Assembly: GCA_946625945.1 (NCBI GenBank)
Contig: CAMOTR010000060.1
Location: 6,510-70,509 of the forward strand
Source: an uncultured Lachnospiraceae bacterium
GTDB taxonomy: Bacteria; Bacillota; Clostridia; Lachnospirales; Lachnospiraceae
Length of the DNA stretch: 64,000 bases
Direction: 5' to 3'
Under the pieces are notes generated by a model, which searched no databases, was not told the origin of the DNA, and worked only from the letters and a program-made list of their open reading frames with translations. A program made the position numbers and the translations under genes. Shown piece after piece: positions 6,490 through 26,356 of this stretch. Position 1 is the stretch's first letter. Each line of letters starts with the position of its first letter.

Positions 6490-6522
6490 GTATTATATTC
6501 CTTCCGTTCGTTTGCGTCAATT

Positions 6523-7638: not shown

Positions 7639-7654
7639 GCTTTTCCTCCAAGTA

Positions 7655-9363: not shown

Positions 9364-9397
9364 ACATCATTCTCAATTTCCAAAACGATTGCAAAAA

Positions 9398-10591
9398 CTA
9401 TTCCAAAAATGCATCCAGATCGTACACCGTGTTGATCTTGCCCGAAAGCACACTTAAGAACACCGGCCCCCCGCCATCCGCGCGCTCCGGCTCCAGCCTC
9501 TTGATCACGGTCGGTCTGGAATCGTCGATCTCCGAGGCTTTCAGGATTGGTTTCATGGAAAACAGCGAACTCTCATAGGTGAAACCGTAATCCGCCCGCA
9601 GATACTTCCGCGCCAGTGCAGACATATACTCCCAGGCACTCTCCGGCTTGCACGCACAGCTGTTGCAGTTACCAAGCCACCTCTCGGCGCACGCCGCCCC
9701 CTGCTCCTTTGCACAGCCAAACTGCGGCACAGCGTCATAACTGGTCTTGTGGGGCGTAAACGTAACGGAAGTTAAGGAGTGATATCCCGTTTTCCCAAAC
9801 GGCATGATTGAGAAAAACGGACCATCCATCACCGTCAGCCCGATCTTCTCAAGCGCTGCATCCACATGACATAATATAATCTCGCACAGCTCATACTTCA
9901 AGCCGAAATCCTGCGTTTCCACGCCTTCCACACAGTGCAATACCTGATTGACAGAAGCATAGGTGGCATTCAGCACAAAGGGCGCCCTGTACTGCTCCTC
10001 CGAAGCGCCCTTCGCAGTCTGCCCTGCCGCTGCTTCGGCAGCTTCCGCATAAATCTCATAGCAATCCCCCTGCTTTATGATCCGCCTGATCCTGCGCCCG
10101 TAGCGCATGGTCACATTAGGCAGCTTCCCAATCTCCTCCAGCAGATGATCCCGCAGGATATGCGCGTCATAGGTATACTCCTGCGTCAGGAACGCGCCGT
10201 CGCACATGCCTTTCTGAAAATACTGCTCCGCAGGCAGATCCATACACGGGATTCCCGCATTCTCACAAAATTTCCGAAACTCCGCCGCATCCGTCCAGGA
10301 AAAATGCCTTGACGTGGCGTAGATCTGTTGAAACGAATCATGAATACAGAATCCGTAATCCTCCACGAACCGCTTAAAATACCCCGCCGACTTCATCGCC
10401 GTGGACAGGGATCTGGGATAATGGTATCCCATATGCACTCTCGCCTGGTTGATATAAGTCGCCCTGGTAAAAGGCGCCTCCTCGATCTCCAGCACAGTCA
10501 CCCGCTGTCCTCTGCGCCCGCAGTAAAGCGCCGCATACAGCCCGTACAGGCCGGCGCCTATGATCAGTTTATCACTCGTCTGCCAACTCAT
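9398..10591 (-). CDS. FAD-dependent oxidoreductase (DAO-like fold)
   Basis: N-terminal IIGAGLYG Rossmann motif, NQARVHMGYHYPRS, C-terminal SGKI. Confidence 0.82.
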   Translation of the reverse strand: MSWQTSDKLIIGAGLYGLYAALYCGRRGQRVTVLEIEEAPFTRATYINQARVHMGYHYPRSLSTAMKSAGYFKRFVEDYGFCIHDSFQQIYATSRHFSWTDAAEFRKFCENAGIPCMDLPAEQYFQKGMCDGAFLTQEYTYDAHILRDHLLEEIGKLPNVTMRYGRRIRRIIKQGDCYEIYAEAAEAAAGQTAKGASEEQYRAPFVLNATYASVNQVLHCVEGVETQDFGLKYELCEIILCHVDAALEKIGLTVMDGPFFSIMPFGKTGYHSLTSVTFTPHKTSYDAVPQFGCAKEQGAACAERWLGNCNSCACKPESAWEYMSALARKYLRADYGFTYESSLFSMKPILKASEIDDSRPTVIKRLEPERADGGGPVFLSVLSGKINTVYDLDAFLE

Positions 10592-12326
10592 TGTTTCTCT
10601 TCACTCCCAGCGTAAACACCGCTACAAACGGCAGCACGAGCATCAGCGGATACAGATACCGAAGCTGTACGACCGGTCCCAAAAACAAAGTCAGATAATA
10701 CCCAAACACTAACGAAAGCGGCACAAATCCGTCATAGCGCCTGCCAGCCGCAAGATGCCCCGCAAGCAGCAGATACAGCCAGCCAAAGATCCCTGGCACA
10801 AACAGATATCTGAGAAGCGGCAGTTTTAAATAAGCGTTTTCATCCGCCCACTGTTCCAATTTTTCATGCAGCCACTCCCACTTGGAGTCTTTATAGATGC
10901 CCCGGGGATTCAGTTCATCCTCCACCCAGCGGGTCTGCACATAACCCAGTCCCCGGTCCCTGCCGTTTTGATTTACGACAGCATGGGTCACATCATCCAG
11001 ATAAAAATAACCGGCATTCACCGCATAGGCCGCATTGACCAGATCCCCCGGATACATCCCCAGCAAACGCAGATACGTCCGCACAAATTCCGCGCTGCGA
11101 TACCGCACCACATATGTGTTGGTATGGTTTTTCACCGGATCGGAGATCTCCGGCCGGTAAAACCGGTATCCCTCGTCCAACAGGAAATCATTGATCAGTG
11201 CCTTCGACGCCTCATCCATGGTGCCGTCATCCTGCTCCAGTTCTCCCACGCCGCCGTGAAACAGCATACATCTTGCCAGCTGCTGGATCGGCATGCTGAG
11301 CATTTCCCGTCTGTCTCCCTGTTCTGCGCCGGTCACCCGGAACAATCCCGTCAGGCACAAGCTTCCCACCACCAGCGCCAGCGCACAGTTTCCCAGCATT
11401 TTCATCCAGAGTTTCCTGTCCGTTTTCCCGAAGATCACTGCTGCAAACAGCACTGCTGCCAGCACCAGCATCGCATACCGCCCATTGTTGCGGAACAACT
11501 GCATCCCAATGGATGCAACAAAAAACAGCACATCGTATCCGTCCGGTTTTGTCCTTTTTCGCCGGATCATCTCACACAGCGCCAGCATCTGTACCAGGAA
11601 AAACAGGCTGAACCAGACATCCTTGATCAGACTGACGCTCATATACATGTGGAACGGATAAAACATGCCGAAAGCCTGCAGACCTATCAGCCATTTCCCG
11701 CTGACGCCGCGCCGATACAGGAGGGTTACGCCCCCTGCAAAAGCCACTGCCAACAACACCATCTGCAGGAACACCAGCATGGCTATCCCTGTATTGCTGT
11801 CGCCGAACCCGCTTTCACCCAGCCGCATTGCCCCTGCGATCAGCAGCGTGTGCGCAATCGGATGGTGATCGTTATAAGACCCGCTTACGATCTGTCCGGT
11901 CTGAATGGTCGCATCATAGGCACAGATCCCCGGATAGTAAGCCAGATAGCAGGGCAGCCAGCACAGAAGAAGCAGCCCCAGGCTGACGGGCCATACCCAT
12001 CTCTTTCGCCCACTGGCAGCCTCCGCGGGGGTCCCTGCCTCTGCCGCCTCTGCCACCTTCGCCGCATTCCCGCGTTCGCGCTGTTTTGCCGCCAGTCTGC
12101 CGATCAGCCGGCCCAGCACGCCAAACAGCGCCCCCCCGCACAGGCTGAGCATTCCCGTTCTCAGCACATATCCGGGCGTCCATTCTATATTTCCGATTGA
12201 AATCCCCGTTGTCTGCGTGGTCTGTGCGGCACTTTGCGCCGCCAGATCATATCCAACGATCTGAAAAAGCAGGAACGCAAACCCGATAAGCCCATATATT
12301 ATGATATCTCTGTTCCCTTTTTTCAT
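10572..12326 (-). CDS. Polytopic membrane protein, DUF6020-like, probable GT-C glycosyltransferase
   Basis: YYPGICAYD and NDHHPIAHT loop, KD, FRNNG and LRYLYP motifs; many TMs. Confidence 0.6.
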   Translation of the reverse strand: MKKGNRDIIIYGLIGFAFLLFQIVGYDLAAQSAAQTTQTTGISIGNIEWTPGYVLRTGMLSLCGGALFGVLGRLIGRLAAKQRERGNAAKVAEAAEAGTPAEAASGRKRWVWPVSLGLLLLCWLPCYLAYYPGICAYDATIQTGQIVSGSYNDHHPIAHTLLIAGAMRLGESGFGDSNTGIAMLVFLQMVLLAVAFAGGVTLLYRRGVSGKWLIGLQAFGMFYPFHMYMSVSLIKDVWFSLFFLVQMLALCEMIRRKRTKPDGYDVLFFVASIGMQLFRNNGRYAMLVLAAVLFAAVIFGKTDRKLWMKMLGNCALALVVGSLCLTGLFRVTGAEQGDRREMLSMPIQQLARCMLFHGGVGELEQDDGTMDEASKALINDFLLDEGYRFYRPEISDPVKNHTNTYVVRYRSAEFVRTYLRLLGMYPGDLVNAAYAVNAGYFYLDDVTHAVVNQNGRDRGLGYVQTRWVEDELNPRGIYKDSKWEWLHEKLEQWADENAYLKLPLLRYLFVPGIFGWLYLLLAGHLAAGRRYDGFVPLSLVFGYYLTLFLGPVVQLRYLYPLMLVLPFVAVFTLGVKRNNELADE

Positions 12327-12330
12327 GCTT

Positions 12331-13305
12331 TTATACTTTTTCTCTTATTTTGCTTTCTTTCGCTTTCTTCGCATCATGGATCCGCATAAAGCGATACTCG
12401 AAATCTTTCCTGTCCTTTGCCGCCATAACCTCCAGGATCATTCCCGCGAAAAACGCCTGAATTCCGGCAACCGCAATAAACCCGCACACGATCAGTGTGG
12501 GGAACCGCGGCACCAATCCGGTATGCAGATAATCAATTCCGATGGGTACAAAAAATCCGACTGCCAGCGCCATCAGTACGAAACTCAGCAGCCCGAAAAA
12601 TTTCATCGGTTTATAATTTTTATACAACTGCAGCATCTTGCGGATCACTTTCATGCCGTCGCTGTAGGTGTTCAGCTTGGACACACTGCCCTCCGGCCGA
12701 TCCCTGTACTCCACCACCACATTGTCCACCTGCATATTGTAGTTTACCGCATGAATCGTCATCTCCGTCTCAATCTCAAATCCCTGAGAAAACACCGGGA
12801 ATGTCTTCACAAACTCATAGCTGAACGCACGGTACCCTGTCATAATATCCTTGATGTCGGAGTGAAACAGCCCGTTGATGCCGAACCGCATGAGACTGTT
12901 CCCGAAATTGTGAAACGGCCGCTTGTTCTCCGTAAAGTAGGTGGAAGAAAGCCTGTCCCCTACAACCATATCGGAATTATGCTCCAGCACAAGCTTCACC
13001 ATCTCTCCGGCGCATTCCAACGGATAGGTGTCATCCCCGTCTATCATCAGATAACACAGGGCATCAACCTCCCGGAACATCCTCCGGATCACATTTCCCT
13101 TGCCCTGCTTGTACTCCTGGCGCACCACAGCGCCCGCCGCCCGGGCGATCTCCTCCGTACGATCCTTGGAATTATTGTTATATACATAAATCACCGCTTC
13201 CGGCAATGTTTTCTTCACATCGGCAATAACTTTTCCGATCGTTTTTTCCTCGTTATAGCAGGGGATCAATACCGCTATTTTGTCCATTTTACCCATTTCC
13301 TCCAA
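12331..13305 (-). CDS. GT2 polyprenol-phosphate glycosyltransferase (DPM1/GtrB-like)
   Basis: LIPCYNEE, GKGN, DGDDTYP, DIMTGYR, FEIETEM and two C-terminal TMs. Confidence 0.88.
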   Translation of the reverse strand: MEEMGKMDKIAVLIPCYNEEKTIGKVIADVKKTLPEAVIYVYNNNSKDRTEEIARAAGAVVRQEYKQGKGNVIRRMFREVDALCYLMIDGDDTYPLECAGEMVKLVLEHNSDMVVGDRLSSTYFTENKRPFHNFGNSLMRFGINGLFHSDIKDIMTGYRAFSYEFVKTFPVFSQGFEIETEMTIHAVNYNMQVDNVVVEYRDRPEGSVSKLNTYSDGMKVIRKMLQLYKNYKPMKFFGLLSFVLMALAVGFFVPIGIDYLHTGLVPRFPTLIVCGFIAVAGIQAFFAGMILEVMAAKDRKDFEYRFMRIHDAKKAKESKIREKV

Positions 13306-13414
13306 ATATTACCTCTATTTTATCACGATTATTCCGATACAGCCACTATTTTTATTTCAAATATTGTGTTAAAATCAAATTGTTTGAGTAAACACAGAAA
13401 GAGGGACAATACAA

Positions 13415-15058
13415 ATGAGGAAACTGTATCCGTTTTCTGTTCATTTTATACGATTTCTTGCGCTGATTTTTACAGGGCTTCTGTTTCTGGCCGGCTTTCT
13501 GTTTACCTGCTATGCAGATGACATGACAACCCAGAAGGTGCTCACCCGTCCCGACAATCCCCTGCTCCATCTGTTGGGAATGGGTCTGTTTGCTGCGATC
13601 CTGTTCGCGGTCTGCCGCATGACCAAGCGGCACAGCGCCAAACTCAAGACACCCCTTCTGGTTCTGACAATGGGCTGGATCCTTGCAGCCGGCGGACTCC
13701 TCGTCCTCTTCGGCCGGACGGCGCCCGCGGCAGACGCCTGGTCCGTCTACGCCGCCGCCAAAAGCCTGGCGGCAGGAGATACCTCCGTGATCCATCCCAC
13801 CGAATCTTACCTGTCCTACTATCCGCAGCAGATCGGGCTGTTAGCCTTTTTCGAACCCCTGATCCGCCTTTTCAATCTGCTGCCCGTGGACCTGGAGGCC
13901 TATCATTTTATCAAATGTGTTTATGTGCTGCTCGCCTGCGTGATCGTGTGGTTTCAGTATCGGACTGTGCACCTTCTGTGGAAAAACGATTCCGCAGACT
14001 GCATCTACCTGATCCTGGCAGGAACCAATCTCCCGTTTATCATGTACAGCTCCTTTGTGTACGGAGAAATTCCGTCCTTTGCAGCGCTGTCCGCCGGACT
14101 GTATTACTTCCTGCGGATGTTTTCTGCCACAGAATTTTCCACGGGTGATGCCAGCTCCGAGACAGGTCGCACACACAGGAACTACAGGAATGTCCTGCTC
14201 AGCCTGCTTTTTCTCACTTTGGCGGTCATGCTGCGCAAAAATTCTCTGGTACTCATCATCGCCATCACGTTTGTGTGCGTAGTGGAAGGACTATTTCGCA
14301 GAGAAAAGACATTGTTGCTCTACGCCGTAGTATGTGTGCTGCTCTCCGTCAGTATTCTGCCATGTGTACAGAAGCTTTACGAATTGCGCGCCGGAAACAC
14401 ACTGAAAACAGGCGTGCCCGCCATGTCCTATTTTGCCATGGGCATGCAGGAATCCTCCCGCGGAAACGGTTGGTATAACGGATATAATTTCAATACGTAT
14501 CAGGAGAATGATATGGACACGGCCGCTGCCGTACAGGCAAGCCGCCATTACATTGCAGAACGCAGTGCATATTTCAGGACACATCCCGACTATGCCGCAA
14601 GCTTTTATTTCTATAAATTCCTGTCCCAATGGGCAGACGGAACCTACGCCAGCAGACAGGCCACTCTGGCCACCCTGGGCGAGCGTCATCCATTATTTCA
14701 GGAACTTTACGATGGCAGATACAGCCCCTTTTATATCGGCTTCTGCAACATCTATCAGAGCATGCTCTATCTGGGTTGTTTCCTGTGCTTCCTGCAGCAA
14801 TTGCTGCGCAGAGAACAGAGAAGCCTCTGTTTCTATCTCGGCATGATCGGCGTCTTCGGCGGTTTCCTGTTCCATATGATCTGGGAGGCAAACGCACGGT
14901 ATATCTTCCTGTACAGCCTGCTCCTGATCCCCTATGCCGCCGCGGGACTCTCCGCACTGTGCGGCTGGTTTAGTAGTACATTCTTCCCTGCAGGAACCCG
15001 TAGAAATAAATCACACCGCATACAAGATGCCAGCCAAACGCCGCCCACTGTGCAATAA
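13415..15058 (+). CDS. Polytopic membrane protein, probable GT-C (GT39-like) glycosyltransferase
   Basis: First-loop Asp (ADA), YYPQQIG, YGEIPS, RKN, AMG, GWYNGY, WEANARY. Shares these motifs with 51265..52785. Confidence 0.6.
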   Translation: MRKLYPFSVHFIRFLALIFTGLLFLAGFLFTCYADDMTTQKVLTRPDNPLLHLLGMGLFAAILFAVCRMTKRHSAKLKTPLLVLTMGWILAAGGLLVLFGRTAPAADAWSVYAAAKSLAAGDTSVIHPTESYLSYYPQQIGLLAFFEPLIRLFNLLPVDLEAYHFIKCVYVLLACVIVWFQYRTVHLLWKNDSADCIYLILAGTNLPFIMYSSFVYGEIPSFAALSAGLYYFLRMFSATEFSTGDASSETGRTHRNYRNVLLSLLFLTLAVMLRKNSLVLIIAITFVCVVEGLFRREKTLLLYAVVCVLLSVSILPCVQKLYELRAGNTLKTGVPAMSYFAMGMQESSRGNGWYNGYNFNTYQENDMDTAAAVQASRHYIAERSAYFRTHPDYAASFYFYKFLSQWADGTYASRQATLATLGERHPLFQELYDGRYSPFYIGFCNIYQSMLYLGCFLCFLQQLLRREQRSLCFYLGMIGVFGGFLFHMIWEANARYIFLYSLLLIPYAAAGLSALCGWFSSTFFPAGTRRNKSHRIQDASQTPPTVQ

Positions 15059-16283
15059 GCAGGATCGGTTTCTTTCTGGCCGCCGTCGCCTTTAACAGCA
15101 CTGCCGCGGAACCAAAAAAGGCAAAAAAGATGCCGCCCATATAGCCCCAGGAGAAATTGAAATCCGGCTCTCTGAATCCCTTCTCATACAGGAAAAACGC
15201 CATTGCAAATGCCATGGCATAGATTTGCCACGAAAAACGATACAGGGTATTTGTCTTTAATTCTTTGTAGTTCAGGATCAAAACCAGGATTGGAAATCCT
15301 GCCGCCAATCCCACAGCCAGTGGGATATTTTCACAGTACAGTCCCCAGATCCGTCCAAAGCAGAATCCGATTCCGCCTTCCGCGCCCTCCTCGGGCACAA
15401 ACACGCCCCGATATTGATAGAGCAGATCCACAAAAGTCGGCAGGAACGTCAGTCCCAGCAGGATTGTCTGGCGCAGATTTCCGAACTTACTGCGGATCAA
15501 ACGATACAGCATGATCAGCCCGGCTGCCCCCACAAACACAAGGGTAAAGCTAGGTTTCGTCATTGTTGTCAGCAGCAGGAAAAGGGCGAACAGCAGATAG
15601 TCTGCTAACTGCGCGCCTGCATTTCCTTCCCGTTCCGTCTGTGCGCCGCTCGCACGCGCTGTCTGCATCCCGGCTTCATAGCTGTCCAGCAGCCTCACAA
15701 ACCACAAAAACGCCAGGATTGCAAACGGCCTCGCCGCCATATAAGTCGCATTATGAAACGGGTTCGGCGTAAACACACCAAGATAATTGAATTTGATCCC
15801 CGGCAGATAAATCCCCGTAGGCGGGTACACCATGGACACAAAAAACAGGCTGACGGAAAGGATACTGATAATCGCGCCCGCAAGCCACTTCCAATCAGGG
15901 AACAATTTCCGCACGCGCCCCAAAAACATCTGATTGAAGGCCCACTTTGTGACAAGCATGCTAAATCCGTTTAAAATTGTGGTCGCCAGCGCCACCGCCG
16001 TTTGCGGCGCAAAAAACAGATTCCAAAATGCCGAAAATTTAAAAAAGATCGGATAGGGAAAATTGTATTTTGTATTCAATCCCCGCATTTCCAGAATGTA
16101 CGCCCTCATGTCGGAATGATACAGCCCGCTCCCAGTGGTTCCCTTCAGGCTCTCCACACACTGCCTGTAGAACAGAATATAAGTGATCACAGAGACCGCA
16201 AGCAGGAGGATTACAAAAAGCCCCCAATCCAGCAGCTGCTCCCTCTTATGATTGCTTTGTTTTTTCTTCTTACCCTTACTCAT
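14970..16283 (-). CDS. Polytopic membrane protein, possible GT-C fold
   Basis: About 10 TMs; first-loop HSD, PNPFHNAT and KPSF motifs; glycosylation gene context. Confidence 0.5.
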   Translation of the reverse strand: MSKGKKKKQSNHKREQLLDWGLFVILLLAVSVITYILFYRQCVESLKGTTGSGLYHSDMRAYILEMRGLNTKYNFPYPIFFKFSAFWNLFFAPQTAVALATTILNGFSMLVTKWAFNQMFLGRVRKLFPDWKWLAGAIISILSVSLFFVSMVYPPTGIYLPGIKFNYLGVFTPNPFHNATYMAARPFAILAFLWFVRLLDSYEAGMQTARASGAQTEREGNAGAQLADYLLFALFLLLTTMTKPSFTLVFVGAAGLIMLYRLIRSKFGNLRQTILLGLTFLPTFVDLLYQYRGVFVPEEGAEGGIGFCFGRIWGLYCENIPLAVGLAAGFPILVLILNYKELKTNTLYRFSWQIYAMAFAMAFFLYEKGFREPDFNFSWGYMGGIFFAFFGSAAVLLKATAARKKPILLIAQWAAFGWHLVCGVIYFYGFLQGRMYY

Positions 16284-16452: not shown

Positions 16453-16481
16453 TTGACATGATTCTTGTTTCATATTATAAT
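16453..16481 (+). promoter_or_regulatory. Perfect-consensus sigma-A promoter for the small secreted protein
   Basis: TTGACA (16453-16458), 17 bp spacer, TATAAT (16476-16481). Confidence 0.85.
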
Positions 16482-16520
16482 TTACTCGAATAGTGTAAGT
16501 TCCTGCCAGAACAAAACTAT

Positions 16521-16578
16521 TACAACTGAATATGGAAAACTACAACTGAATATTGGAAAGACAACTGAATATTGAAAA
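16521..16578 (+). repeat. Three tandem direct repeats of 19-20 bp, candidate operator array
   Basis: Core ACAACTGAATAT at 16522, 16542 and 16561, between the promoter and the RBS. Confidence 0.85.
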
Positions 16579-16601
16579 TTTTTTTACAAAGGAGAAAGCC
16601 T

Positions 16602-16856
16602 ATGAAGAAAAAGATTCTGTATCGTGTAGCAGCTTGGGCCGGCATTGCAGTTTGCAGCCTCAGCCTGTTCTTTGTAACACCGCAGACCTCGATCACCGCT
16701 CAGGCAGCCGGTGGAGACCCGGGAATTGCTCAGCCGCAGGCAGATGTTATTTATTGGGTATATTTGGAGGCGGACGGCAAAATGTGGAAACGGCTTTGGA
16801 ATAGCACTTCGCAGGAGTGGCTGACAGAATGGATCTTCGTCCGCGATCTGCCGTGA
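16602..16856 (+). CDS. Small secreted Trp-rich protein (84 aa precursor)
   Basis: RBS AAGGAG then ATG 16602. Signal peptide MKKK plus hydrophobic core plus AQA site. Mature part has 5 Trp. Confidence 0.8.
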   Translation: MKKKILYRVAAWAGIAVCSLSLFFVTPQTSITAQAAGGDPGIAQPQADVIYWVYLEADGKMWKRLWNSTSQEWLTEWIFVRDLP

Positions 16857-16928
16857 TTTATAAGTAAGGGTGCTGTCGCTCCTCATCCTAACTGACGATT
16901 ACACAGTTGCTTTAAAATCATTGTGGGG

Positions 16929-16966
16929 TAGACCTTCCGTCAAAAGATGGCAGGTCTATTTCTGTT
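16929..16966 (+). terminator. Probable intrinsic terminator after the small-protein gene
   Basis: TAGACCTTCCGTC-AAAA-GATGGCAGGTCTA hairpin followed by TTTCTGTT. Confidence 0.55.
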
Positions 16967-16993
16967 GACTTACGGGTAAAAGTGCCTTATAAT
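16965..16993 (+). promoter_or_regulatory. Sigma-A promoter for the blaI-like/M56 pair
   Basis: TTGACT-17 bp-TATAAT. A TTAC-GG-GTAA inverted repeat (16970-16979) overlaps the -35 box and spacer. Confidence 0.75.
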
Positions 16994-17062
16994 AAAATCA
17001 TCTGTTTTATATATTTATCTTATACAAAAGAAGTCAACTTAACAGAAAGGTGGAAATGAAAC

Positions 17063-17461
17063 ATGATGAATCCGAGAGAGCTGGATGTCCTGAATATCCT
17101 CTGGAAATCCGAGCAGCCCATGATGGCAACCGACATCGTAAACGCGGGGGAGGGATTGACCCAGAGCACTGTTACCGCAGTATTACGTAAGCTTTTACAT
17201 GCAAAGCTGGTAGAGGTGGCCGGCGTCACCCATAGCGGCAAGGTACTCAGCCGCACCTATCGCCCCACGGAGGCCTCCAAAGACGCCATCCTGAACGATT
17301 TCTCCAGCACCTACACCTGTTTTCAGGATATTATCTCCAAGAGCACTCTCTGCTCCGCACTGTTGCAGACCAATGAGGATGCTACCGAGACAAAGAGGGA
17401 TATTGCTGAGTTGAAAGCAATGCTGAAGGAATATGACCAGACTTACAATAAGAAAAAATAA
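17063..17461 (+). CDS. BlaI/MecI/CopY-family winged-helix repressor
   Basis: RELDVLNILW...STVTAVLRKLL...YRP pattern, 132 aa, directly upstream of an M56 peptidase. Confidence 0.85.
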   Translation: MMNPRELDVLNILWKSEQPMMATDIVNAGEGLTQSTVTAVLRKLLHAKLVEVAGVTHSGKVLSRTYRPTEASKDAILNDFSSTYTCFQDIISKSTLCSALLQTNEDATETKRDIAELKAMLKEYDQTYNKKK

Positions 17462-17466
17462 TTGAG

Positions 17467-18669
17467 GTGATTTCATTGCATCTAACACTTGCAACAACTT
17501 ACATGGCGATTCTGACCACAGGTATATTTCTGACTTTTTTGACAGTCTGCCTGCTTCATCGAGGTTTACTGACTCGCTTTGGCTATAAGCTGTTGGCGTT
17601 GTTTGTATTGTTTTCTTTTTTGCGTTTTCTCATACCCATGGAATTTTCTTTTACACAAACAGTTCTCTTACCGCTTGGTGTATCGGATGTTATTGGTTTA
17701 TTACGTCACAGGCTGTTCTTTTTCTTAGGACAGCCTGTCTCTATTTGGCTCTTGTTTGAATACATCTGGGCATTGGGCGCTATCATCGGTATTCTTCATT
17801 ATGCCTTCTCCTGTCTCCGCGCCAGGCATTATATTGTTCTACATGCCAAGGAGTTGACAGACACTGAGCCGTATCGAACAATGATAGCCAACATCTGTAG
17901 AGAGCAGAACCGCCCAAACCATTTTCGGGTCATAGAATTGCCTGGTCTGAATGTCCCTATGCTCTTTGGGATCTTCTCGCCCAAGATTTTAATCCCGGAA
18001 CATCTTCAGCTTTCAGAATCCCATACCTACTACATCCTCCGTCATGAAATGACACATCACTTTCATCATGACTTGATCCTAAAGGGGCTGGTTAAAATCA
18101 TCACATTGATCTACTGGTGGAATCCGCTCTGCATTCTGTTAAATAAACAGACTGATGTAATCTTGGAAATGCGGGTGGATGATTCTCTCACACGTTCGGA
18201 TATCAATCGCACTATTGAATACATGAATTGCCTGATTGATTATGCCACCGATACCGTTCAAAAGGCACCGTTTTCCAAGTCATTTACGATGAGCTTGTTT
18301 GCCAAGAAAGACTCCGATCTGGTAAAGCGCTTCGTGCTAATGTCCAACAACCAGAATAAAACAGATCTACCTTTATCCATTTTGATATGTGGTATTGTTA
18401 CATGTGTTTATCTCTGCTCTTATCTCTTTATTTTTGAAGCAAGCAAACCTCCATCCATGGAAAACTTAGATATTCCGTCTGATTTTAACGATATAGGTCA
18501 ATTACACACAGGTGTAGAAAGTAGTAACTATTTTATAGACAACGGCGACGGAACCTATGATCTGTACTATGGTGGCGTGTACGTAGAGACGACCGATTCC
18601 ACCGAATACTCCTATCCCGGCACACCAATCTACACTCCAGAGAACAGTCCTTATCCAATAACGAAGTAA
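17467..18669 (+). CDS. BlaR1/MecR1-type M56 membrane metalloprotease sensor lacking a penicillin-binding domain
   Basis: LRFLIP, PMLFGIFSPKILIP, HEMTH (HExxH), WWNP, EMRVD, LVKRF. The last TM is followed by only about 77 aa. Confidence 0.88.
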   Translation: MISLHLTLATTYMAILTTGIFLTFLTVCLLHRGLLTRFGYKLLALFVLFSFLRFLIPMEFSFTQTVLLPLGVSDVIGLLRHRLFFFLGQPVSIWLLFEYIWALGAIIGILHYAFSCLRARHYIVLHAKELTDTEPYRTMIANICREQNRPNHFRVIELPGLNVPMLFGIFSPKILIPEHLQLSESHTYYILRHEMTHHFHHDLILKGLVKIITLIYWWNPLCILLNKQTDVILEMRVDDSLTRSDINRTIEYMNCLIDYATDTVQKAPFSKSFTMSLFAKKDSDLVKRFVLMSNNQNKTDLPLSILICGIVTCVYLCSYLFIFEASKPPSMENLDIPSDFNDIGQLHTGVESSNYFIDNGDGTYDLYYGGVYVETTDSTEYSYPGTPIYTPENSPYPITK

Positions 18670-18700: not shown

Positions 18701-18732
18701 AGGGGCATGATAGCCGCGGCTATCATGCCCCT
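18701..18732. repeat. Perfect 32-bp palindrome between convergent genes (possible terminator or processing stem)
   Basis: AGGGGCATGATAGCCG|CGGCTATCATGCCCCT with no loop. Confidence 0.8.
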
Positions 18733-18741
18733 TCATGGTGC

Positions 18742-19650
18742 TCATAAAAGACCCTTTTTCCTTTCCATCACCTCAGCAAAAACCTTTTTCTCGTTATACT
18801 CCGGAGAAAAATCTTTAGCTGCTTCACAGATCAATTGGATCTCAGCAATATCCTCCTCCAACTCCTCTGCAATCGTTTCCATATCCTTCCCCTTCCGCAG
18901 CTTCCTGCAGACCAAGGTGACTAATTTAAAATCCTGTCCTTCTACTCTTCCTTCTGCTCTTCCTTCATCCCTGACATACGCATCCTCCGCAGCCCGGTCT
19001 CTCCTTGCTTTCTGACTCTGCACCCAATACCAGCTTGGCGATCTTTCAATACCCAATTTCTCCAATACTTCTACCGCCTTCGCGATCCCTGCATTTCGAT
19101 CCAGTTTTTTCACCATCGCCAGCTCCTCCTTTGTCTCTGCATTAAATAGCCGGATCCAGCCATTCACCGGGCTTTCCTCCGTCAAATCCTTGCACAGTTC
19201 AATGATATGCACCTCCAAAAGATCCGTGAACTCTTCGCCGTCCTGATCCCTCAAGGTGTAAATAGAGTGATACTTCTTTCCCGGCAGCAGTTTAAAATCC
19301 AGGATACTGATCGTGATACTTTTTTTCAGTTTATCATAATCCTCCCCGGTCCACAACTCATCCGCATACAAATGAGACAGATAAAACAGATTCCGCTTAA
19401 TCCAGAATTTCTGGTTTTTCAACTGAACCTCGATATCAATCCAGGTATCATCATTCAGCGTGAGCGCCAGATCCAGTATCCCTTGTTTCTGCTTCCTCGT
19501 CCGTTTCCGCAAAATCGGTGACACGATCCTGACAGACCGGATGGTTTTAAGCGGTATCCCTGTCACATCACTGATAAACTGTTTTCTGACAGCCGCTACG
19601 CCAAATACTTCCCGAAACGCGAACTCGTCTTTTTTTAATGATACAAACAC
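18742..19650 (-). CDS. Rpn family recombination-promoting nuclease / putative transposase (PD-(D/E)XK)
   Basis: FAFREVFG, GILD...IDIEVQ, RNLFY, ITISILDF, HIIEL, EGRAEGRVEG tetrad repeats. GTG start behind AGGAGG. Confidence 0.88.
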   Translation of the reverse strand: MFVSLKKDEFAFREVFGVAAVRKQFISDVTGIPLKTIRSVRIVSPILRKRTRKQKQGILDLALTLNDDTWIDIEVQLKNQKFWIKRNLFYLSHLYADELWTGEDYDKLKKSITISILDFKLLPGKKYHSIYTLRDQDGEEFTDLLEVHIIELCKDLTEESPVNGWIRLFNAETKEELAMVKKLDRNAGIAKAVEVLEKLGIERSPSWYWVQSQKARRDRAAEDAYVRDEGRAEGRVEGQDFKLVTLVCRKLRKGKDMETIAEELEEDIAEIQLICEAAKDFSPEYNEKKVFAEVMERKKGLL

Positions 19651-19868: not shown

Positions 19869-21527
19869 TTATTTCTCATAGTATCTCCCCAGCCCCAACA
19901 GCACGAACATGGTCGCCGTGCCGATGGATTGCTGGAAGCTCCACACATTGTTGACGGAAAGCGCCAGCACGCCCAGCGCGCAGGCCGCCGCCCTCGGATT
20001 CAGATCCTGCATTCTGCAAAACAGATCCCGCTTCCAGAACAGCGCCAGCATCCCACCGTAGGTGACGGCGCCCAATAATCCTTGATTTACCAGCATTGTC
20101 AGCAGTTCGCAGTGAGCATTGGTCAGCCGCATGCCCTCAAAGACCTGATCCGCCACGCCGGCCAGCCCCCTTGCAATTCCCTGCTCCGAATACAAATATT
20201 CCGCCATACAGTCCGGGCCCACACCCACCAGCTTATGGAGGAAATCCTGCCCGGCAAAGCACTGAAGTCCCAGCGGCCAGGTTGCGCCCCGATGGTGCCC
20301 CCAGTCATAGTCGAACCGAAAAATCCCAAACTTTGAGAGGAATCCGATACTGCCCGGATGCATGGTGTTGGCTGCGATCAGGCAGACAGCGCCCAGAAAA
20401 GCCACCCCCACTGCCCCTGCCAGCAGAATTGCCAGCTTTTCAAAAAACTCCGGCGCCGTTTTCCGGTCGGCGCTCTTTTCCTGTAGAAAACGGTTATACA
20501 ACAGCCCGCCCAGCCCGGCGCCAAGCACCAACAGAGAAAGCGGACCGCAAAGCAGATCTCCCAAGCCCAGTTCAAAATTCATCTCCGCAGAAAACACCAC
20601 CTGAATCATCCAGGTAAAGACACAGGCGCCCCCCAGGAGCAGCACCACCAGCCAGAACCGGTGCAGTCTGTCAAAATCCCGCCCATAGAGCGACCTGCAG
20701 AACAGAAACAATAACGTTCCGCACATGGCGACGATGCCGCTGTCGCTCCCCTGTGTAACCAGCGCCGCGAATCCCGTAAACAGATAAAGCAACCACAGGA
20801 TCATCCCGGATCGTTTTTCACCCTGTCCCAGCCAGAACAGTCCCACCGCCGTGAACAGAACAGCCAGCATATAACTGCAGAACCAATTGATATTACCCAC
20901 CGTGGAAATATAAATCGGCAACCCGGAGTTCTCCATCTGCAGCGGCCAGATATCAAAGCGATTCAGAAATCCCAGTACAAATGTGATCGCAGAGACTGGA
21001 AAGGCCGGAAATAAAAGCCACTGCCCCAGCTTTTCAAATTCAAACCGGGACAGCAGAAAGTACGAGCTCACCAGGATCAGCTGCGTCCCCATGCCCATGT
21101 ACCAACCCTTGATGCCCCAGAGCGCAGTTTCCCGGTATTCGGAGCATGCGTACGAAATTACCGTGCCAACCGCAAACAGCACGGCCAAAGTATCCATTGC
21201 CGAAATCTTTTTTCCTCCGACTGCATGCCGTTCACCGACCGCATCCCGCCTGCCGACCGCATCCCGGATCCGGCAGACCGACCATACTGCAATAAGTGGC
21301 AGCAAAATCCAGCCCAGACGCACTCCGCAGGTCCGCAGCAGGTAAGATTTATCGCTTCCGATATGGGTATACCCCTCCTGAAAATACAGTGGCATGACCA
21401 CCAGGATCAGAGCGATCCAGATGCAGGAGCACAGTTTCAAAGCGTAGGTCAGAATCATACCCAAATCAAATGCGGCCGTCGGATCCTCTTTTTTCTTTTG
21501 CAGATTCTTTGTTTTATTTGCAGCCAT
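19869..21527 (-). CDS. O-antigen ligase-like (Wzy_C/WaaL family) membrane protein
   Basis: STVGNIN, RGATW, LVGVGPD, NAHCELLTMLVNQGLLG; many TMs. Confidence 0.75.
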   Translation of the reverse strand: MAANKTKNLQKKKEDPTAAFDLGMILTYALKLCSCIWIALILVVMPLYFQEGYTHIGSDKSYLLRTCGVRLGWILLPLIAVWSVCRIRDAVGRRDAVGERHAVGGKKISAMDTLAVLFAVGTVISYACSEYRETALWGIKGWYMGMGTQLILVSSYFLLSRFEFEKLGQWLLFPAFPVSAITFVLGFLNRFDIWPLQMENSGLPIYISTVGNINWFCSYMLAVLFTAVGLFWLGQGEKRSGMILWLLYLFTGFAALVTQGSDSGIVAMCGTLLFLFCRSLYGRDFDRLHRFWLVVLLLGGACVFTWMIQVVFSAEMNFELGLGDLLCGPLSLLVLGAGLGGLLYNRFLQEKSADRKTAPEFFEKLAILLAGAVGVAFLGAVCLIAANTMHPGSIGFLSKFGIFRFDYDWGHHRGATWPLGLQCFAGQDFLHKLVGVGPDCMAEYLYSEQGIARGLAGVADQVFEGMRLTNAHCELLTMLVNQGLLGAVTYGGMLALFWKRDLFCRMQDLNPRAAACALGVLALSVNNVWSFQQSIGTATMFVLLGLGRYYEK

Positions 21528-21541
21528 CCCTCGATGTCCCT

Positions 21542-22540
21542 CTACGACAATTTTTTTATCTTCCGGTGCAGTTTTCGAATTCCTCTGGGCGCGATCACAA
21601 ACAGCGTCAGATATAGCTTATTTTTCATGGTCAGATAAGGATTCCGGATCCCCTTCCACCAGTCTCTGCGCAGTCTCCGCACTACCTGCATGTAAAAATC
21701 ATTTTCCCGGTTCATTTGACGGATCGGCACATGCAGCATATAATCCAACCGCTGAAAAATACCAAACCGAACCGCGATGGTATGCAGATCCCGCTCTGAG
21801 GCATTAATACCCGCAAGCACCATGTCCGCATTCCAGATGTTATCCTCGTACACTCGGGAGAGCTGCTCCTTATCCGCCTTTCTGGAATTGCTGTTCATGC
21901 GGTAAAACACATGATACGCCTGCCCCGGCAGTGACACCACCGTTCCGATCTCGGGCAGGATCTCCACCAGAAAGTGAAAGTCCTCATTGAGCGCCCCCAC
22001 AGGAAACTGCCTGCCCTCCAACACGTCCCTCCGGAACAGCTTGGTACAAAAAGAGCAGTCCCCCTTGTGCAGCAACAATTCTCTCAAGAAATCCCTGTGT
22101 CCGATCAGGGTATCTTTCTCCGGCGGAATACAGATATCCGGCAGTCGATTCCCCTGTTCATCCACCTCGTCCCTGCCGATTTGCACGACACTTGCGTCAT
22201 ATTTCTGCGTCCCGCGCCACAGCCGCTCATACATATCTGGCGCAATATAGTCGTCACTGTCCACAAAGCCGATATAGGCTCCTTCTGCTTTCTGCAGTCC
22301 CAGATTCCTGGCTGTGGAAGAACCTCCGTTTTCTTTGTGAAACACTTTGATCCGGCGGTCTTTTGTGACATATTTGTCGCACATCTCTCCCGTCCCGTCC
22401 GTGGAACCGTCGTCGATCAACAGAATCTCCAGATTGGAATAGGTCTGCGCGCAGACAGAATCCACACAACGGGCAAGATATGCTTTTGTATTGTACACCG
22501 GCACGATCACGCTGATCAGCGGTTGATTCCCATTTTGCAT
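21542..22540 (-). CDS. GT2 glycosyltransferase
   Basis: ISVIVPVYN, DDGSTD, ARNLGL, FVDSDD, ED. Confidence 0.92.
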   Translation of the reverse strand: MQNGNQPLISVIVPVYNTKAYLARCVDSVCAQTYSNLEILLIDDGSTDGTGEMCDKYVTKDRRIKVFHKENGGSSTARNLGLQKAEGAYIGFVDSDDYIAPDMYERLWRGTQKYDASVVQIGRDEVDEQGNRLPDICIPPEKDTLIGHRDFLRELLLHKGDCSFCTKLFRRDVLEGRQFPVGALNEDFHFLVEILPEIGTVVSLPGQAYHVFYRMNSNSRKADKEQLSRVYEDNIWNADMVLAGINASERDLHTIAVRFGIFQRLDYMLHVPIRQMNRENDFYMQVVRRLRRDWWKGIRNPYLTMKNKLYLTLFVIAPRGIRKLHRKIKKLS

Positions 22541-25161
22541 AACATCTTCCTCTCACTGATGACTTCCGCCACAGAACAGGGACCATCCTGAAAGCGGACA
22601 CCACCGTCCGGGGCACCGGGATTATCCTGCGTGCAAGAACCGCTCTGCGCACATTCAAGCCCCGCAGCCAGCTCTAAAAGACGCTCTGCCGCATTCTCCG
22701 CGTTCCACACTTCCGTGATCGTGCGATAAGCCTCCCTGCCCAGCTTCTGACAACGCGCCCGATCCGCCAGGAGCATTTCCACCTGTCGGAAGAGCTCCGA
22801 GGACTTCCCGTCCGGGTAGACACATCCGTTCTCCCCGGGCCGGATCAGATAGGGCACCGCCCCCATCATATGATCCGCCACCACAGCGCATCCGCTGTTC
22901 ATGGCCTCATTGATCACAGCGCCCCAGCCTTCCTTCCGGTCGCTGGTGGCAAGATAGATATCCGTCTGCTCCATCAGGCGACGCACTTCATCCGGCGTCC
23001 GATACCCCAGGAGCGTCACCACATCCGAAAGCCCATATTGCTCCATCAGGCGATCCACCAAAGGCTGCAGATTGCCGCCGCCTACGATGTTCATATGAAA
23101 ACTGCATTCCTTCTCCTTCAAGTACTTTGCGCACAGCAAAGGCAGCTCCGGATGCTTCCAGTCCAGGAATCGCGCTGCCCATAAAATGCTGCCTGCCTTT
23201 TTGTCACGCATCAGGCGATCCGGATCATAGTGCTTCGTCTCCGGAAAATATCCCCAGCGGAACATTTTTTGCGGATACGCCCGCACAATGTGAAAATCCG
23301 ACGGCACGTAAGCCCCGGCGCAGAGCAGGTACACAGGTGCCTTGCGATAACGGGTATGGTCGTGATACTTTTTCAGGAGACCTCTGGGGGAAACCGCCTT
23401 CCACTGCCCCTCCTTGTACAGGCGCTCGCTGTATCGTATGACCGGCTTGCCGCTCTGCAGCCTCGCCTCGATATAACGCTCCTCATCCACACCCCCGAAA
23501 AGCACCGTCTGCGCCCGCAGAATCAGACCGTCACAACTTTCCGGCTCCTCATAATAATACTTTACATAGGGCAGTTCAACCTCGTCCTGCCATCCCATGC
23601 GAATCCGTTCCTCCTCCATGGGCTCTGTCTGGATAAAATAAAAGTTCTCCCCCAGCCGTTCATACAGGGCGTTACAGAATGGGATCTGATGGTGATTGAT
23701 ATAATTCGACACAAACACAAACAATCCGCCGGCGCCCATGTCTGCCGGTTCCCCGGGCACTGACTCCCCGGACGCTGCTTTCTTGGCCGCAAGCTCCCCG
23801 GCCGCGATCTGCTTGTAGATCTCCACCAGCCTCTGATAATTGACCTGCGGATCATGGGTAACCAGCGCATGCTTCCTTGCATGCTCCGTATATTGCTTCT
23901 GCTTCTCCGGATCACGAAACATCCGGATCACCGCATCCGCCAGATTTCGGGCATTCTCCTCCAGCCCGGATCCACGGTACAGGATCCCGTCTTCTCCGCC
24001 GGTGAAAATACTGCTGATGCCGCCCACATCCGCGCTGACACAGGGCATCCCCAAAAGCATCGCCTCCCCCAGCGAATTGGGAGAGTTCTCAATGGAAGAA
24101 CAGCACACAAAAAGATGCCTCTTCAGATACTGCTGCTTCATCTGCTCCGCGGAAAGCCGCCCCAGAAAGTGTACACACTCCCAAAGCTGCCCCTGCTGCA
24201 TCAGCTTCCGCAGATACTTCCCATAGGCAGATATTTTCATGCGTTTTATGACGCTCCCGTCACCTATTACACTGTTGCCCGCCACATATACCTGTACATC
24301 CGGAAATTCCTCCCGGATCCGCGGCAGCGCTAGTAGCATATAATGCAATCCTTTGATCGGATAGTCTCCCTGGCTCAAAAAGATCGAGTGCGGTTCACAT
24401 TTCTCCTGCTCCCATTGCTCCGTATAAAAATCCGCTCGAAGTGTCTCGTTCATCTTAAAATAGCGGGCATCCGGATTCCACGCAGAGGTATAATAGCGAT
24501 CCCACGTGGTTCTACCGGTTACATTTCCCGCCAATGCAACAGCCTCCTGTTCCATCGCGCCTCTCAGTGCGAATTTTTTTTGCTGCCTGGGCAGCGTGTC
24601 CCGCTTTAACACATCCCGCAGCGTTGCCGTGTGAATCACTGTATCCGGCAGATCGGCAAAATATGCATCCGCATACACCTTGCACAGTCCCTGAATGCCG
24701 ATCAGGACGCGATTCCTGTCCGGCACAGCGCGACACATCGCCAGCGTGTGGGGGTATTCCGTTCCAAAGCAATGCACCACATCCGGTTCCGTGCGGTACA
24801 CAATATAATACAGCGGCAGCTCAAGATTCTCCATAAATTCCGGTACTGCCCCATAATAAGCATGCGGATTTACCGTGTCCTCCCGGAACGCAAACCAGTC
24901 CAAAGAGGCTCCGTCTCTTGTCAGTCTGCCCTGATAAATGACATATCCGTCATACAAATGACGTTCCGCACCATATTGTTCCGCGCCGGCCAGATCCTCC
25001 GCCACCGGAAACGCCACCGCCAAAGCGATGTCATTCTCCGCCTGATGTTTCAGGCAGACTTCCGCCAATCCGGACAGCCAGCCTTCCTTGTTGTTGATCT
25101 CCCTATGAAGTTGTTCTGCGATCATGGGCAGCATGATATTGCACAGCCACAGTACCCGCAT
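22516..25161 (-). CDS. Tandem GT4-GT4 fusion glycosyltransferase
   Basis: Two GT-B units, each with an EX7E motif (ENSPNSLGE and EGWGAVINE), joined by an Ala/Gly/Pro linker. Confidence 0.85.
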   Translation of the reverse strand: MRVLWLCNIMLPMIAEQLHREINNKEGWLSGLAEVCLKHQAENDIALAVAFPVAEDLAGAEQYGAERHLYDGYVIYQGRLTRDGASLDWFAFREDTVNPHAYYGAVPEFMENLELPLYYIVYRTEPDVVHCFGTEYPHTLAMCRAVPDRNRVLIGIQGLCKVYADAYFADLPDTVIHTATLRDVLKRDTLPRQQKKFALRGAMEQEAVALAGNVTGRTTWDRYYTSAWNPDARYFKMNETLRADFYTEQWEQEKCEPHSIFLSQGDYPIKGLHYMLLALPRIREEFPDVQVYVAGNSVIGDGSVIKRMKISAYGKYLRKLMQQGQLWECVHFLGRLSAEQMKQQYLKRHLFVCCSSIENSPNSLGEAMLLGMPCVSADVGGISSIFTGGEDGILYRGSGLEENARNLADAVIRMFRDPEKQKQYTEHARKHALVTHDPQVNYQRLVEIYKQIAAGELAAKKAASGESVPGEPADMGAGGLFVFVSNYINHHQIPFCNALYERLGENFYFIQTEPMEEERIRMGWQDEVELPYVKYYYEEPESCDGLILRAQTVLFGGVDEERYIEARLQSGKPVIRYSERLYKEGQWKAVSPRGLLKKYHDHTRYRKAPVYLLCAGAYVPSDFHIVRAYPQKMFRWGYFPETKHYDPDRLMRDKKAGSILWAARFLDWKHPELPLLCAKYLKEKECSFHMNIVGGGNLQPLVDRLMEQYGLSDVVTLLGYRTPDEVRRLMEQTDIYLATSDRKEGWGAVINEAMNSGCAVVADHMMGAVPYLIRPGENGCVYPDGKSSELFRQVEMLLADRARCQKLGREAYRTITEVWNAENAAERLLELAAGLECAQSGSCTQDNPGAPDGGVRFQDGPCSVAEVISERKMLCKMGINR

Positions 25162-25182
25162 ACCTTATTCCTCTCTTTATAC

Positions 25183-26349
25183 TCAGTTAAAGATCCAATT
25201 CAAATACGGCAGCAGCCTGATATCCGTCGCATACATCCCCTTCAGCAGCACCGCAAAATAACAGACAAACGCTCCGATCACGCCCACATAGCATAACCTT
25301 CTCAACCACTTGACATCTATGTCATAAACCAATGCCGGTAACAGGAAGATCTGGGATACGATCAGATAATATCCCACCCTGGACACCTCCGGGATAAAGC
25401 TTCCGCAGGGATACACCACCAACGCCATCCCGTTCAGATAAAAATAAAACCGGTTCGCAACGTTTTGCCGGTCTGCTCCCACCAGACTTCTTTTATAACA
25501 GATTCCACACAGCGCCAGCGTACCCGCGCATTTCAACACATTGACCCAGGAAATATGCCCCGTATCAAAAGCAGAATCCCGATAGAACGGATAGAACGTA
25601 AACGCGATCTCCCGGTAAAAATTCGGAAAACAAAACAGACTGGCAACCCCCAGAGCGCCCACAGCCAGGTGCCACTTCTTTAGCTTCCCCTTCGCCAGAA
25701 CATACGCCGCCAGATACGCCGGGATCACCAGCAAAATTGATTTATGAAACACCGCACCAAACAAGATCCAGAGCACAAATTTTCCGAACTCTTCCCGCAA
25801 CACATACTGCATGGCATACAGCGCGATGGCTAAGGCCAGATAATACCGCACCGTATTTAAGCTGTTAAAATAATAACCTCCGGTCATCAGCAGAAACAAC
25901 GAAAAAGCATAATGCACCGCCTGCCCGTGCAGCGCCCTCACGAAAAACCACACTGTGAGCAGGGAAAACAGCGCAAAGATCGGCAGATAATTGTCGTAGC
26001 CAAACAGCTGCTGCATCCACTTGACGATCAAATTAAATCCGATCTCCGAGGAAACATGCCGCTCCTGAGCGATCAGGCGGAAATTAAAACGATACACCCA
26101 ATAGTCATTGCCTACGGCAATCCTACAAGCCGACACTCCTGTCAGAAGGCAAAAAATCGCAAACTCTGCCACACTGCTCCGGGCGTACCCCCTGCTGCCG
26201 GGAATCGCCCCCAAAGCCCTGCCACTGCCCGCTCCCGCCGAGCCTGCCCCCGGAGCCGTCGTCTGCCACTGCACAAAGCTCTGCACAAAAAACGCCAGCA
26301 AAACCGTTACAATTGTAAGCGTAATATACACCAACGCACTGCTCTCCAT
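25183..26349 (-). CDS. EpsG-family polysaccharide polymerase (Wzy)
   Basis: R-x3-GNDY, EIGF, NTVRYY, FHKS motifs; about 10 TMs. Confidence 0.8.
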   Translation of the reverse strand: MESSALVYITLTIVTVLLAFFVQSFVQWQTTAPGAGSAGAGSGRALGAIPGSRGYARSSVAEFAIFCLLTGVSACRIAVGNDYWVYRFNFRLIAQERHVSSEIGFNLIVKWMQQLFGYDNYLPIFALFSLLTVWFFVRALHGQAVHYAFSLFLLMTGGYYFNSLNTVRYYLALAIALYAMQYVLREEFGKFVLWILFGAVFHKSILLVIPAYLAAYVLAKGKLKKWHLAVGALGVASLFCFPNFYREIAFTFYPFYRDSAFDTGHISWVNVLKCAGTLALCGICYKRSLVGADRQNVANRFYFYLNGMALVVYPCGSFIPEVSRVGYYLIVSQIFLLPALVYDIDVKWLRRLCYVGVIGAFVCYFAVLLKGMYATDIRLLPYLNWIFN

Positions 26350-26356
26350 GCTTTTC

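Follow-up and report, generated by a model that had tools for sequence, protein, structure and literature searches.

A conserved and uncharacterised three-gene module of rumen and gut Lachnospiraceae consists of a BlaI-type repressor, a BlaR1-type M56 membrane protease without a penicillin sensor, and a small secreted β-sheet protein (here called Pep) that is predicted to dock onto the tiny outer domain of the protease. One copy lies in a 64,000-nucleotide stretch of DNA from an uncultured Lachnospiraceae bacterium (hereafter the window). It provides a testable lead to what such "orphan" BlaR sensors detect.

Architecture of the locus

Every feature described in the sequence-only reading was found to be present. 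Its parts are as follows.

16453..16481 (+), sigma-70-type promoter of pep, TTGACA-17-TATAAT, 12/12 match to the consensus
16521..16578 (+), three tandem direct repeats (T/G)ACAACTGAATAT in the pep 5'UTR, at 16521, 16541 and 16560, period 19-20 nt
16602..16856 (+), pep, 84-aa precursor of a secreted miniprotein, ATG start at 16602 preceded by the RBS AGGAG at 16590; signal peptide residues 1-35 (AQA/A), a variable linker and a conserved core of residues 46-84 (nt 16737-16853)
16926..16966 (+), intrinsic terminator between pep and blaI, hairpin 16926-16961 followed by a U-tract, dG about -22 kcal/mol
16965..16993 (+), promoter of blaI-m56, TTGACT-17-TATAAT, 11/12 match to the consensus
17063..17461 (+), BlaI/MecI/CopY-family winged-helix repressor, 132 aa
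17467..18669 (+), M56 (BlaR1-type) membrane zinc protease without a penicillin-binding domain, 400 aa, HEMTH at 18043-18057
18436..18666 (+), C-terminal extracytoplasmic tail of M56, residues 324-400, with the conserved motif NxYxI..DGxYDLY....IY, predicted docking site for Pep
18701..18732 (strand not assigned, listed on the minus strand), strong hairpin (14 bp, 8 GC) between the m56 stop and the convergent PD-(D/E)XK gene, likely a terminator

The start of m56 is more likely the TTG at 17476 behind GAGG, as in the related locus L010, which gives 397 aa. No β-lactamase, PBP or copper ATPase was found among the ORFs of 200 aa or more between 6 and 27 kb. The flanks encode GT2/GT4 glycosyltransferases, EpsG and DUF6020, which places the module in a surface-polysaccharide gene cluster, although several flanking ORFs matched no Pfam family.

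The window and four relatives (L010, L062, L063 and L064) carry a rearranged form, pep, terminator, blaI-m56. The terminator is present at the same place with different stem sequences in these five loci, and the extended -35 block TTTYTGTTGACTT of the blaI promoter is invariant in five loci. The pep promoter is conserved in L010 and L062. In contrast, the triple repeat, which had been taken for three operator-like elements, is a lineage-specific tandem expansion and not a conserved operator. Three matches occur against 0.25 expected by chance, but the copy number is 3 in the window, 2 in L010, 1 in L062 and 0 in L063 and L064. The repeats are direct, whereas BlaI-type operators are palindromes. 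They show no RNA structure (z -0.47) and no other exact copy in the genome. No shared palindrome or robust shared operator was found in the two window promoters. The palindrome GACAACA-N6-TGTTGTC in the L062 pep promoter and TTGTCAAT-centred palindromes upstream of blaI in other loci are leads only. No operator could be defined, so control of either promoter by the BlaI-like protein is inferred only.

The repressor matches PF03965 at 27.4 bits (cut-off 22.6) over residues 4-122, while its match to NF012168 is weak. The protease matches PF05569, its only Pfam hit, at 87.6 bits (cut-off 31). H193, E194, H197, E234 and D238, which comprise the HExxH zinc site and the downstream acidic ligands in a cytoplasmic loop between TM3 and TM4, are invariant in 26 relatives. 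The AF2 model of M56 (pLDDT 82) has helices at residues 8-30, 32-55, 93-126 and 301-320, and its best Foldseek hits are S. aureus BlaR1 structures 8exs/8exr (E 3.7e-6 to 5.5e-4), with a TM-score of 0.65 on the target for 8exr_A. Only about 77 residues follow the last TM helix, and NF000326 scores 62.8 bits against a cut-off of 400. The C-terminal transpeptidase sensor (PF00905-type) of canonical BlaR1/MecR1 is therefore absent.

Pep as a conserved companion of M56

Pep belongs to a real protein family of 288 clusters at 50% identity, which is found in neither Pfam nor NCBIfam. A signal-peptide-like N-terminus occurs in 141 of 148 members, and AF2 folds the core as a β-meander with pLDDT of about 97. 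Family hits were found in 39 of 400 Lachnospiraceae genera, and eight of the sampled genomes carry two pep copies. A phylum-wide sample gave one hit outside Lachnospiraceae, although only 13 candidates per genome were scored and sensitivity was limited.

Absence of linkage of Pep homologues to BlaI and M56 pairs had been proposed beforehand as a refuting condition, but the linkage holds. In 28 of 30 short loci, m56 lies directly upstream of pep on the same strand, the other two being cut by contig ends. In 20 of 20 extended loci the order is m56-pep, with blaI detected directly upstream in 19, and the metagenome loci long enough to show the linkage also have it. The usual form is a tight blaI-m56-pep operon, and in 9 of the 20 extended loci the m56 stop and the pep start overlap by 1 or 4 nt. 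In most relatives pep is the last gene of the operon and not the upstream regulated gene that it was first taken to be. In the reverse direction, 37 of 43 strong ectodomain hits have an adjacent pep hit, and one more appears with a wider profile. On the other hand, five BlaI-M56 pairs with a related ectodomain have no detectable pep (G049, G328:C30 and G218, and one copy each of the tandems in G099 and G386), and a second short M56 in the window's own genome (L007) also has none. No other neighbour of the module is conserved.

Searches with Pep gave little indication of its function. Foldseek against the PDB returned nothing at E <= 0.001, and VIA-align gave a best Z of 4.0, with monellin or cystatin sheets and single propeller blades, which is not informative. 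A profile search against PDB sequences found nothing. A resemblance to fucose-lectin/tectonin-type propeller blades (PF07938) was dropped, since it rests on one multi-repeat protein (P0029), Pep has no Pfam hit, and there is a single unit per protein. No fused M56-Pep forms or longer relatives were found, which is weak evidence, and hhalign detected no homology between the Pep core and the M56 ectodomain. PADLOC and PHROGs gave nothing for Pep or M56, and a plasmid collection gave no hit.

Pep is small, Sec-secreted and aromatic-rich, and VIA-align shows, among many other hits, a weak resemblance to the bacteriocin laterosporulin3 (Z 2.7). Membrane metalloproteases of the Abi/CPBP type can give bacteriocin immunity, and M56 might in principle act as immunity or sensor for an antimicrobial Pep. 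However, this structural hit is far below significance, the core in the window is not cationic (net charge about -1, read from the sequence), no transporter, immunity or modification gene is conserved nearby, and the partner pair is a canonical repressor-protease regulator. This reading is very unlikely.

Predicted docking and its interpretation

A complex model supports contact between the Pep core and the M56 ectodomain, with an ipSAE of 0.63 (runs of 0.70, 0.62 and 0.63), whereas the best of three controls scored 0.00. In the calibration of the method this mark was reached by 58 of 80 solved complexes and by 2 of 110 mismatched pairs, although these counts hold only roughly because our own alignments were used. 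The runs agree in at least 95% of contacts, and the pLDDT of the partner is at least 78. M56 residues 343-347 pair with Pep residues 53-57. The surrounding M56 segment (329-352), which pairs with the first strand of Pep, is disordered (pLDDT below 50) when M56 is folded alone. This is a model's confidence and not a measurement of binding. Mirror-tree analysis shows no co-variation beyond shared history, with r of 0.27 for the ectodomain and 0.28 for the protease domain.

We favour, with a probability of roughly 0.55, the view that the locus is a self-contained signalling module in which the BlaI-type repressor is controlled by an M56 protease that has lost its penicillin-binding sensor and keeps only a tail of about 75 residues outside the cell. 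In this view, Pep (mature form about 45-50 aa) is the dedicated extracellular partner of the protease, its first strand being added onto the otherwise disordered segment of the tail. The docking state of Pep would set the activity of the cytoplasmic protease domain and in turn cleavage of the repressor and expression of the module and of any distal BlaI targets. Pep might activate the switch, hold it off, or present a third molecule. The gene content, conservation, linkage, signal peptide, protease motifs and fold are established by the analysis, whereas the contact is a prediction in silico, and proteolysis of the repressor and its modulation by Pep are inferred by analogy with BlaR1/BlaI.

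The interpretation in the sequence-only reading, that Pep is the regulated gene and could also be the ligand of a proteolysis-based autoinducing circuit, is partly supported. Such an autoinducer is a special case of the above view, in which Pep accumulates outside the cell and activates M56, BlaI is cleaved and pep is derepressed, giving a proteolysis-based quorum or confinement sensor. Pep is a secreted product with its putative receptor encoded beside it, as in rap-phr and plcR-papR cassettes, the module is self-contained, and docking is predicted. However, the Pep core is a conserved folded domain, more conserved than its receptor (43% against 26% mean identity), while known pheromones diversify, and no positive-feedback operator is shown. 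We regard this reading, which is not excluded, as possible but less likely. If true, it would be a protein-based, proteolysis-driven cell-cell or confinement signalling system, distinct from agr, RRNPP and ComX and widespread in gut and rumen Lachnospiraceae. In Rap-Phr, PlcR-PapR, agr and ComCDE, the gene for a secreted signal precursor likewise sits immediately next to, and often overlaps, its receptor gene, and Phr and PapR are exported by Sec. Those signals are short processed or modified peptides that diversify rapidly, with cytoplasmic RRNPP proteins or histidine kinases as receptors, whereas the conserved part of Pep is a folded 38-aa domain, no AgrB- or ComA-like gene is present, and the receptor candidate is a membrane protease.

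Relation to known BlaI-M56 systems

The closest published system is CenIR with CDR_0474 of Clostridioides difficile (Kurtz, Muh, Weiss and Ellermeier, J Bacteriol 2026, PMC13492132), which weakens the initial statement that no characterised example was known. There, too, a BlaI-like repressor and an M56 protease with a short C-terminal tail and no transpeptidase sensor, whose activating signal is unknown, lie right next to a gene for a small signal-peptide protein. This exported protein is the main repressed output; it is derepressed about 500-fold on CenIR depletion and disturbs envelope homeostasis, and induction of its promoter on depletion did not need it. CDR_0474 is 136 aa, restricted to C. 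difficile and without detectable relatives, with no BLAST similarity to any other protein reported, while Pep is about 80 aa; none of the best 150 Pep-profile hits is about 136 aa. Its gene is a separate unit 215 bp downstream of cenIR, whereas pep is usually translationally coupled to m56 and in the window lies upstream with its own promoter and terminator. Repression by CenI is shown experimentally, whereas that of pep is inferred, and no binding of CDR_0474 to CenR has been proposed.

By this analogy, Pep might simply be the main gene product repressed by the BlaI-like protein, acting on the cell envelope or surface without a role in sensing, while M56 detects an unrelated signal through its tail. 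Pep is the only non-regulatory gene of the module, it has its own promoter and terminator in the window clade, and the module here sits among surface-polysaccharide genes. On the other hand, translational coupling to m56 within the regulator operon in most loci is more typical of subunits or cognate signals than of an effector, and the complex model supports contact with the ectodomain. We regard this output-only reading as possible but less likely, and it does not exclude feedback through binding.

BlaR1/BlaI and MecR1/MecI of Staphylococcus aureus (structures 8exp-8ext) share the four-TM M56 zinc protease fold with HExxH, a winged-helix repressor gene directly upstream and presumed signal transduction by repressor proteolysis, but the present module has neither the penicillin-binding sensor domain nor a β-lactamase or PBP2a target gene, and has a third, secreted component. 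The sensor-less "atypical" BlaIR systems of M. tuberculosis and M. abscessus and PvmSR of P. aeruginosa (bioRxiv 10.64898/2026.08.03.742534) also pair an M56 protease without the β-lactam sensor with a BlaI-like regulator and have an unknown signal. They come from different phyla, their regulons concern metabolism or virulence, and no associated secreted miniprotein is reported for them.

About 94% of annotated BlaR-like proteins have no β-lactam-binding domain, and what they sense is an acknowledged open question (PMC13492132). The present module offers a concrete candidate partner for one large subfamily, which is genetically linked and for which a specific interface is predicted, and therefore makes the question testable with a three-gene construct, a purified 5-kDa protein and a reporter. 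It occurs in roughly a tenth of the sampled genera of Lachnospiraceae, which are dominant gut and rumen bacteria. If Pep proves to be a ligand, this would be a new mode of Gram-positive signalling, whereas if it proves to be only an output, it would generalise the CenIR/CDR_0474 arrangement.

Gene content of the module and the pep family

The region 16453-18669 contains three co-oriented genes, and the features picked out in the sequence-only reading are present:
16453-16481, perfect sigma-70-type promoter upstream of pep (12/12 match)
Between this promoter and the ribosome-binding site, three direct repeats (T/G)ACAACTGAATAT with a 19-20 nt period (3 matches against 0.25 expected by chance)
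16602-16856, pep, 84 aa, following an AGGAG ribosome-binding site
16926-16966, hairpin with a U-tract (about -22 kcal/mol), separating pep from the second promoter
16965-16993, second promoter (11/12 match)
17063-17461, repressor gene, matching PF03965 above threshold
17467-18669, M56 gene (m56), matching Peptidase_M56 at 87.6 bits and carrying HEMTH; its start is probably the TTG at 17476, behind GAGG, as in the closest relative
Outside this region, at 18742-19650 on the minus strand, there is also a PD-(D/E)XK nuclease-family transposase (PF12784, Rpn-like), convergent with m56

The genome is a Lachnospiraceae MAG whose nearest relative is a roe-deer rumen MAG, and it has eight M56 genes, of which this one is the most divergent. 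A second short M56 in the same genome (412 aa; locus L007, G000:C92, 1171-2409, minus strand) has a related tail motif (DSYIYQGEDGSYY) and a BlaI-like gene upstream, but no pep. Within about 10 kb of the module, no beta-lactamase, PBP or copper pump was found among the ORFs of 200 aa or more. The flanks (6112-16283 and 19869-27154) encode several GT2 and GT4 glycosyltransferases, an EpsG-family polymerase, DUF6020 and big polytopic membrane proteins with no Pfam match (13415-15058, 14970-16283 and 19869-21527), so that the context looks like a large surface-polysaccharide gene cluster. Part of this context is shared with the related locus L010, where a homologue of the convergent transposase occupies the same place, but with none of the other related loci.

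Pep belongs to a real, unannotated protein family. A word-based search found only five close relatives, whereas an exhaustive profile search of 1.84 billion representatives found 288 clusters at E <= 0.001, nearly all of 70-95 aa. The consensus consists of a signal peptide, a variable linker and a C-terminal core PxxDxxxWxYKxxNGKLYKRLYNxxTxxWxGDWIxV, in which W52, R64, L65, W73 and W77 are nearly invariant. Of 148 members, 141 have a basic N-terminus followed by a hydrophobic stretch, and 137 of these also have an AxA-type site. AlphaFold2 predicts the core (residues 47-84) as a three- to four-stranded beta-meander with a pLDDT of about 97. Searches of Pfam, NCBIfam, PADLOC, PHROGs and PDB sequences gave nothing, the Atlas shows only 'hypothetical protein' clusters of Bacillota, and fold searches were uninformative (Z <= 4.0). 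A 615-aa tyrosinase-domain protein from the representative library (P0029) has seven repeats DGKLWERYWNGS.WSW scored as Fungal_lectin (PF07938) blades, which resemble the pep core DGKxWKRLWN..W..W, although this resemblance is not supported by any other test.

Linkage to blaI and m56 and the derived arrangement

A profile of the close relatives hit 39 of 400 sampled Lachnospiraceae genera. In 28 of the 30 further loci examined, an M56 gene lies directly upstream of pep on the same strand, the other two loci being cut by contig ends. Twenty loci were extended to about 7.7 kb. All 20 show m56-pep, blaI was detected directly upstream in 19, and in nine the m56 stop and the pep start overlap by 1 or 4 nt. 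No other gene family recurs in the flanks, and the trio is therefore a self-contained cassette. In the reverse direction, the same 400 genomes were searched with an ectodomain-only profile. Of 43 strong hits (E <= 1e-9), 37 have an adjacent hit of the pep profile, one more appears with a wider pep profile, and five pairs have none. Two of these five are one copy of a tandem duplication of the module, in loci L054 (G099:C41) and L074 (G386:C60), where one M56-BlaI copy lacks its own pep; in L074 that copy abuts a transposase-like ORF. In L054 and another locus, L053, one M56 gene is split into two ORFs by a frameshift or an assembly error. A phylum-wide sample gave one hit outside Lachnospiraceae.

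The arrangement in the window is a derived variant. In the window, L010 and the metagenome loci L063 and L064, pep lies upstream, followed by a terminator and then blaI-m56, while a further related locus, L062, is cut by its contig end just past the terminator and the blaI promoter. Their pep identities to the window range down to 46%. All five loci keep a terminator hairpin at the same place with different stem sequences, together with an invariant block TTTYTGTTGACTT at the blaI -35. The repeats upstream of pep had been taken for operator-like elements in the sequence-only reading. However, the repeat unit is present 3, 2, 1, 0 and 0 times in the window, L010, L062, L063 and L064, respectively, forms no RNA structure and has no other exact copy in the genome. 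The repeats are therefore read as a recent tandem expansion in the 5'UTR rather than a conserved operator array. One lead keeps the operator idea alive: the L062 pep promoter (L062:2185-2395) carries the perfect palindrome GACAACA-N6-TGTTGTC in the spacer between its -35 and -10, and the half-site is the 5' part of the window's repeat. No operator shared by both promoters could be defined. In the canonical operons (L043, L055, L052, L047, L060, L011 and other loci), recurrent AT-rich palindromes centred on TTGTCAAT or TGTCAACA lie about 50-150 nt upstream of blaI, and they could be operators or -35 boxes of divergent promoters.

The M56 protein and its predicted contact with pep

Twenty-six pep-linked M56 proteins are 355-400 aa long, and H193, E194, H197, W217-W218-N219, E234 and D238 are invariant among them. 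The AlphaFold2 model has a pLDDT of 82, and its best matches are the S. aureus BlaR1 cryo-EM structures (E 3.7e-6 to 5.5e-4). The last TM helix is followed by a tail of about 75 residues with the conserved motif NxYxI..DGxYDLY....IY. In the model of M56 alone, residues 354-376 form three strands, whereas residues 329-352 are disordered with a pLDDT below 50.

When M56 residues 322-400 were folded with pep residues 36-84 using custom alignments, the ipSAE was 0.63 (runs of 0.70, 0.62 and 0.63), against 0.00 for the best of three controls. In the calibration of the method, this mark was reached by 58 of 80 solved complexes and by 2 of 110 mismatched pairs, although these counts hold only roughly because custom alignments were used. 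The runs agree in at least 95% of contacts, and the pLDDT of the partner is at least 78. The lowest-error contacts pair M56 343-347 with pep 53-57, that is, strand addition onto the very segment that is disordered in M56 alone. This supports binding but does not show it. A mirror-tree test gave no specific co-variation (r 0.27 with the ectodomain against 0.28 with the protease domain). The pep core is the most conserved part of the module, at 43% against 26% mean identity, and hhalign finds no homology between pep and the ectodomain.

Comparison with CenIR and interpretation

CenIR of C. difficile is a BlaIR-like pair without a penicillin-binding domain, with an inducing signal still unknown (Kurtz et al., 2026, PMC13492132). 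The gene 215 bp downstream, cdr_0474, encodes a 136-aa exported protein that is derepressed about 500-fold on CenIR depletion, and its runaway expression causes the growth and lysis defects. The same study shows that only about 6% of roughly 15,000 M56 proteins carry a transpeptidase domain, and a preprint on P. aeruginosa PvmSR makes the same point for sensor-less BlaR homologues. A sensor-less BlaIR pair with an adjacent small exported protein thus has one characterised precedent, in which the small protein is an output. A CenIR-like role of pep as an output only is a serious rival, though the less likely one, and it is compatible with feedback through binding. A bacteriocin reading is unlikely. 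The interpretation in the sequence-only reading, that secreted pep could be an autoinducer, is supported only in part: it is one sub-case of the reading favored here and remains tentative.

Three things are new here: the small-protein family is large and conserved, it is tightly coupled to m56, and it has a specific predicted interface with the tail of the sensor. While gene content, conservation and linkage are shown by the sequences, the contact rests on a structural model, and export of pep, repression by the BlaI-like protein and an effect of pep on repressor proteolysis are inferred. Most likely, with a probability of roughly 0.55, pep is the dedicated extracellular partner of the M56 sensor and modulates repressor proteolysis.
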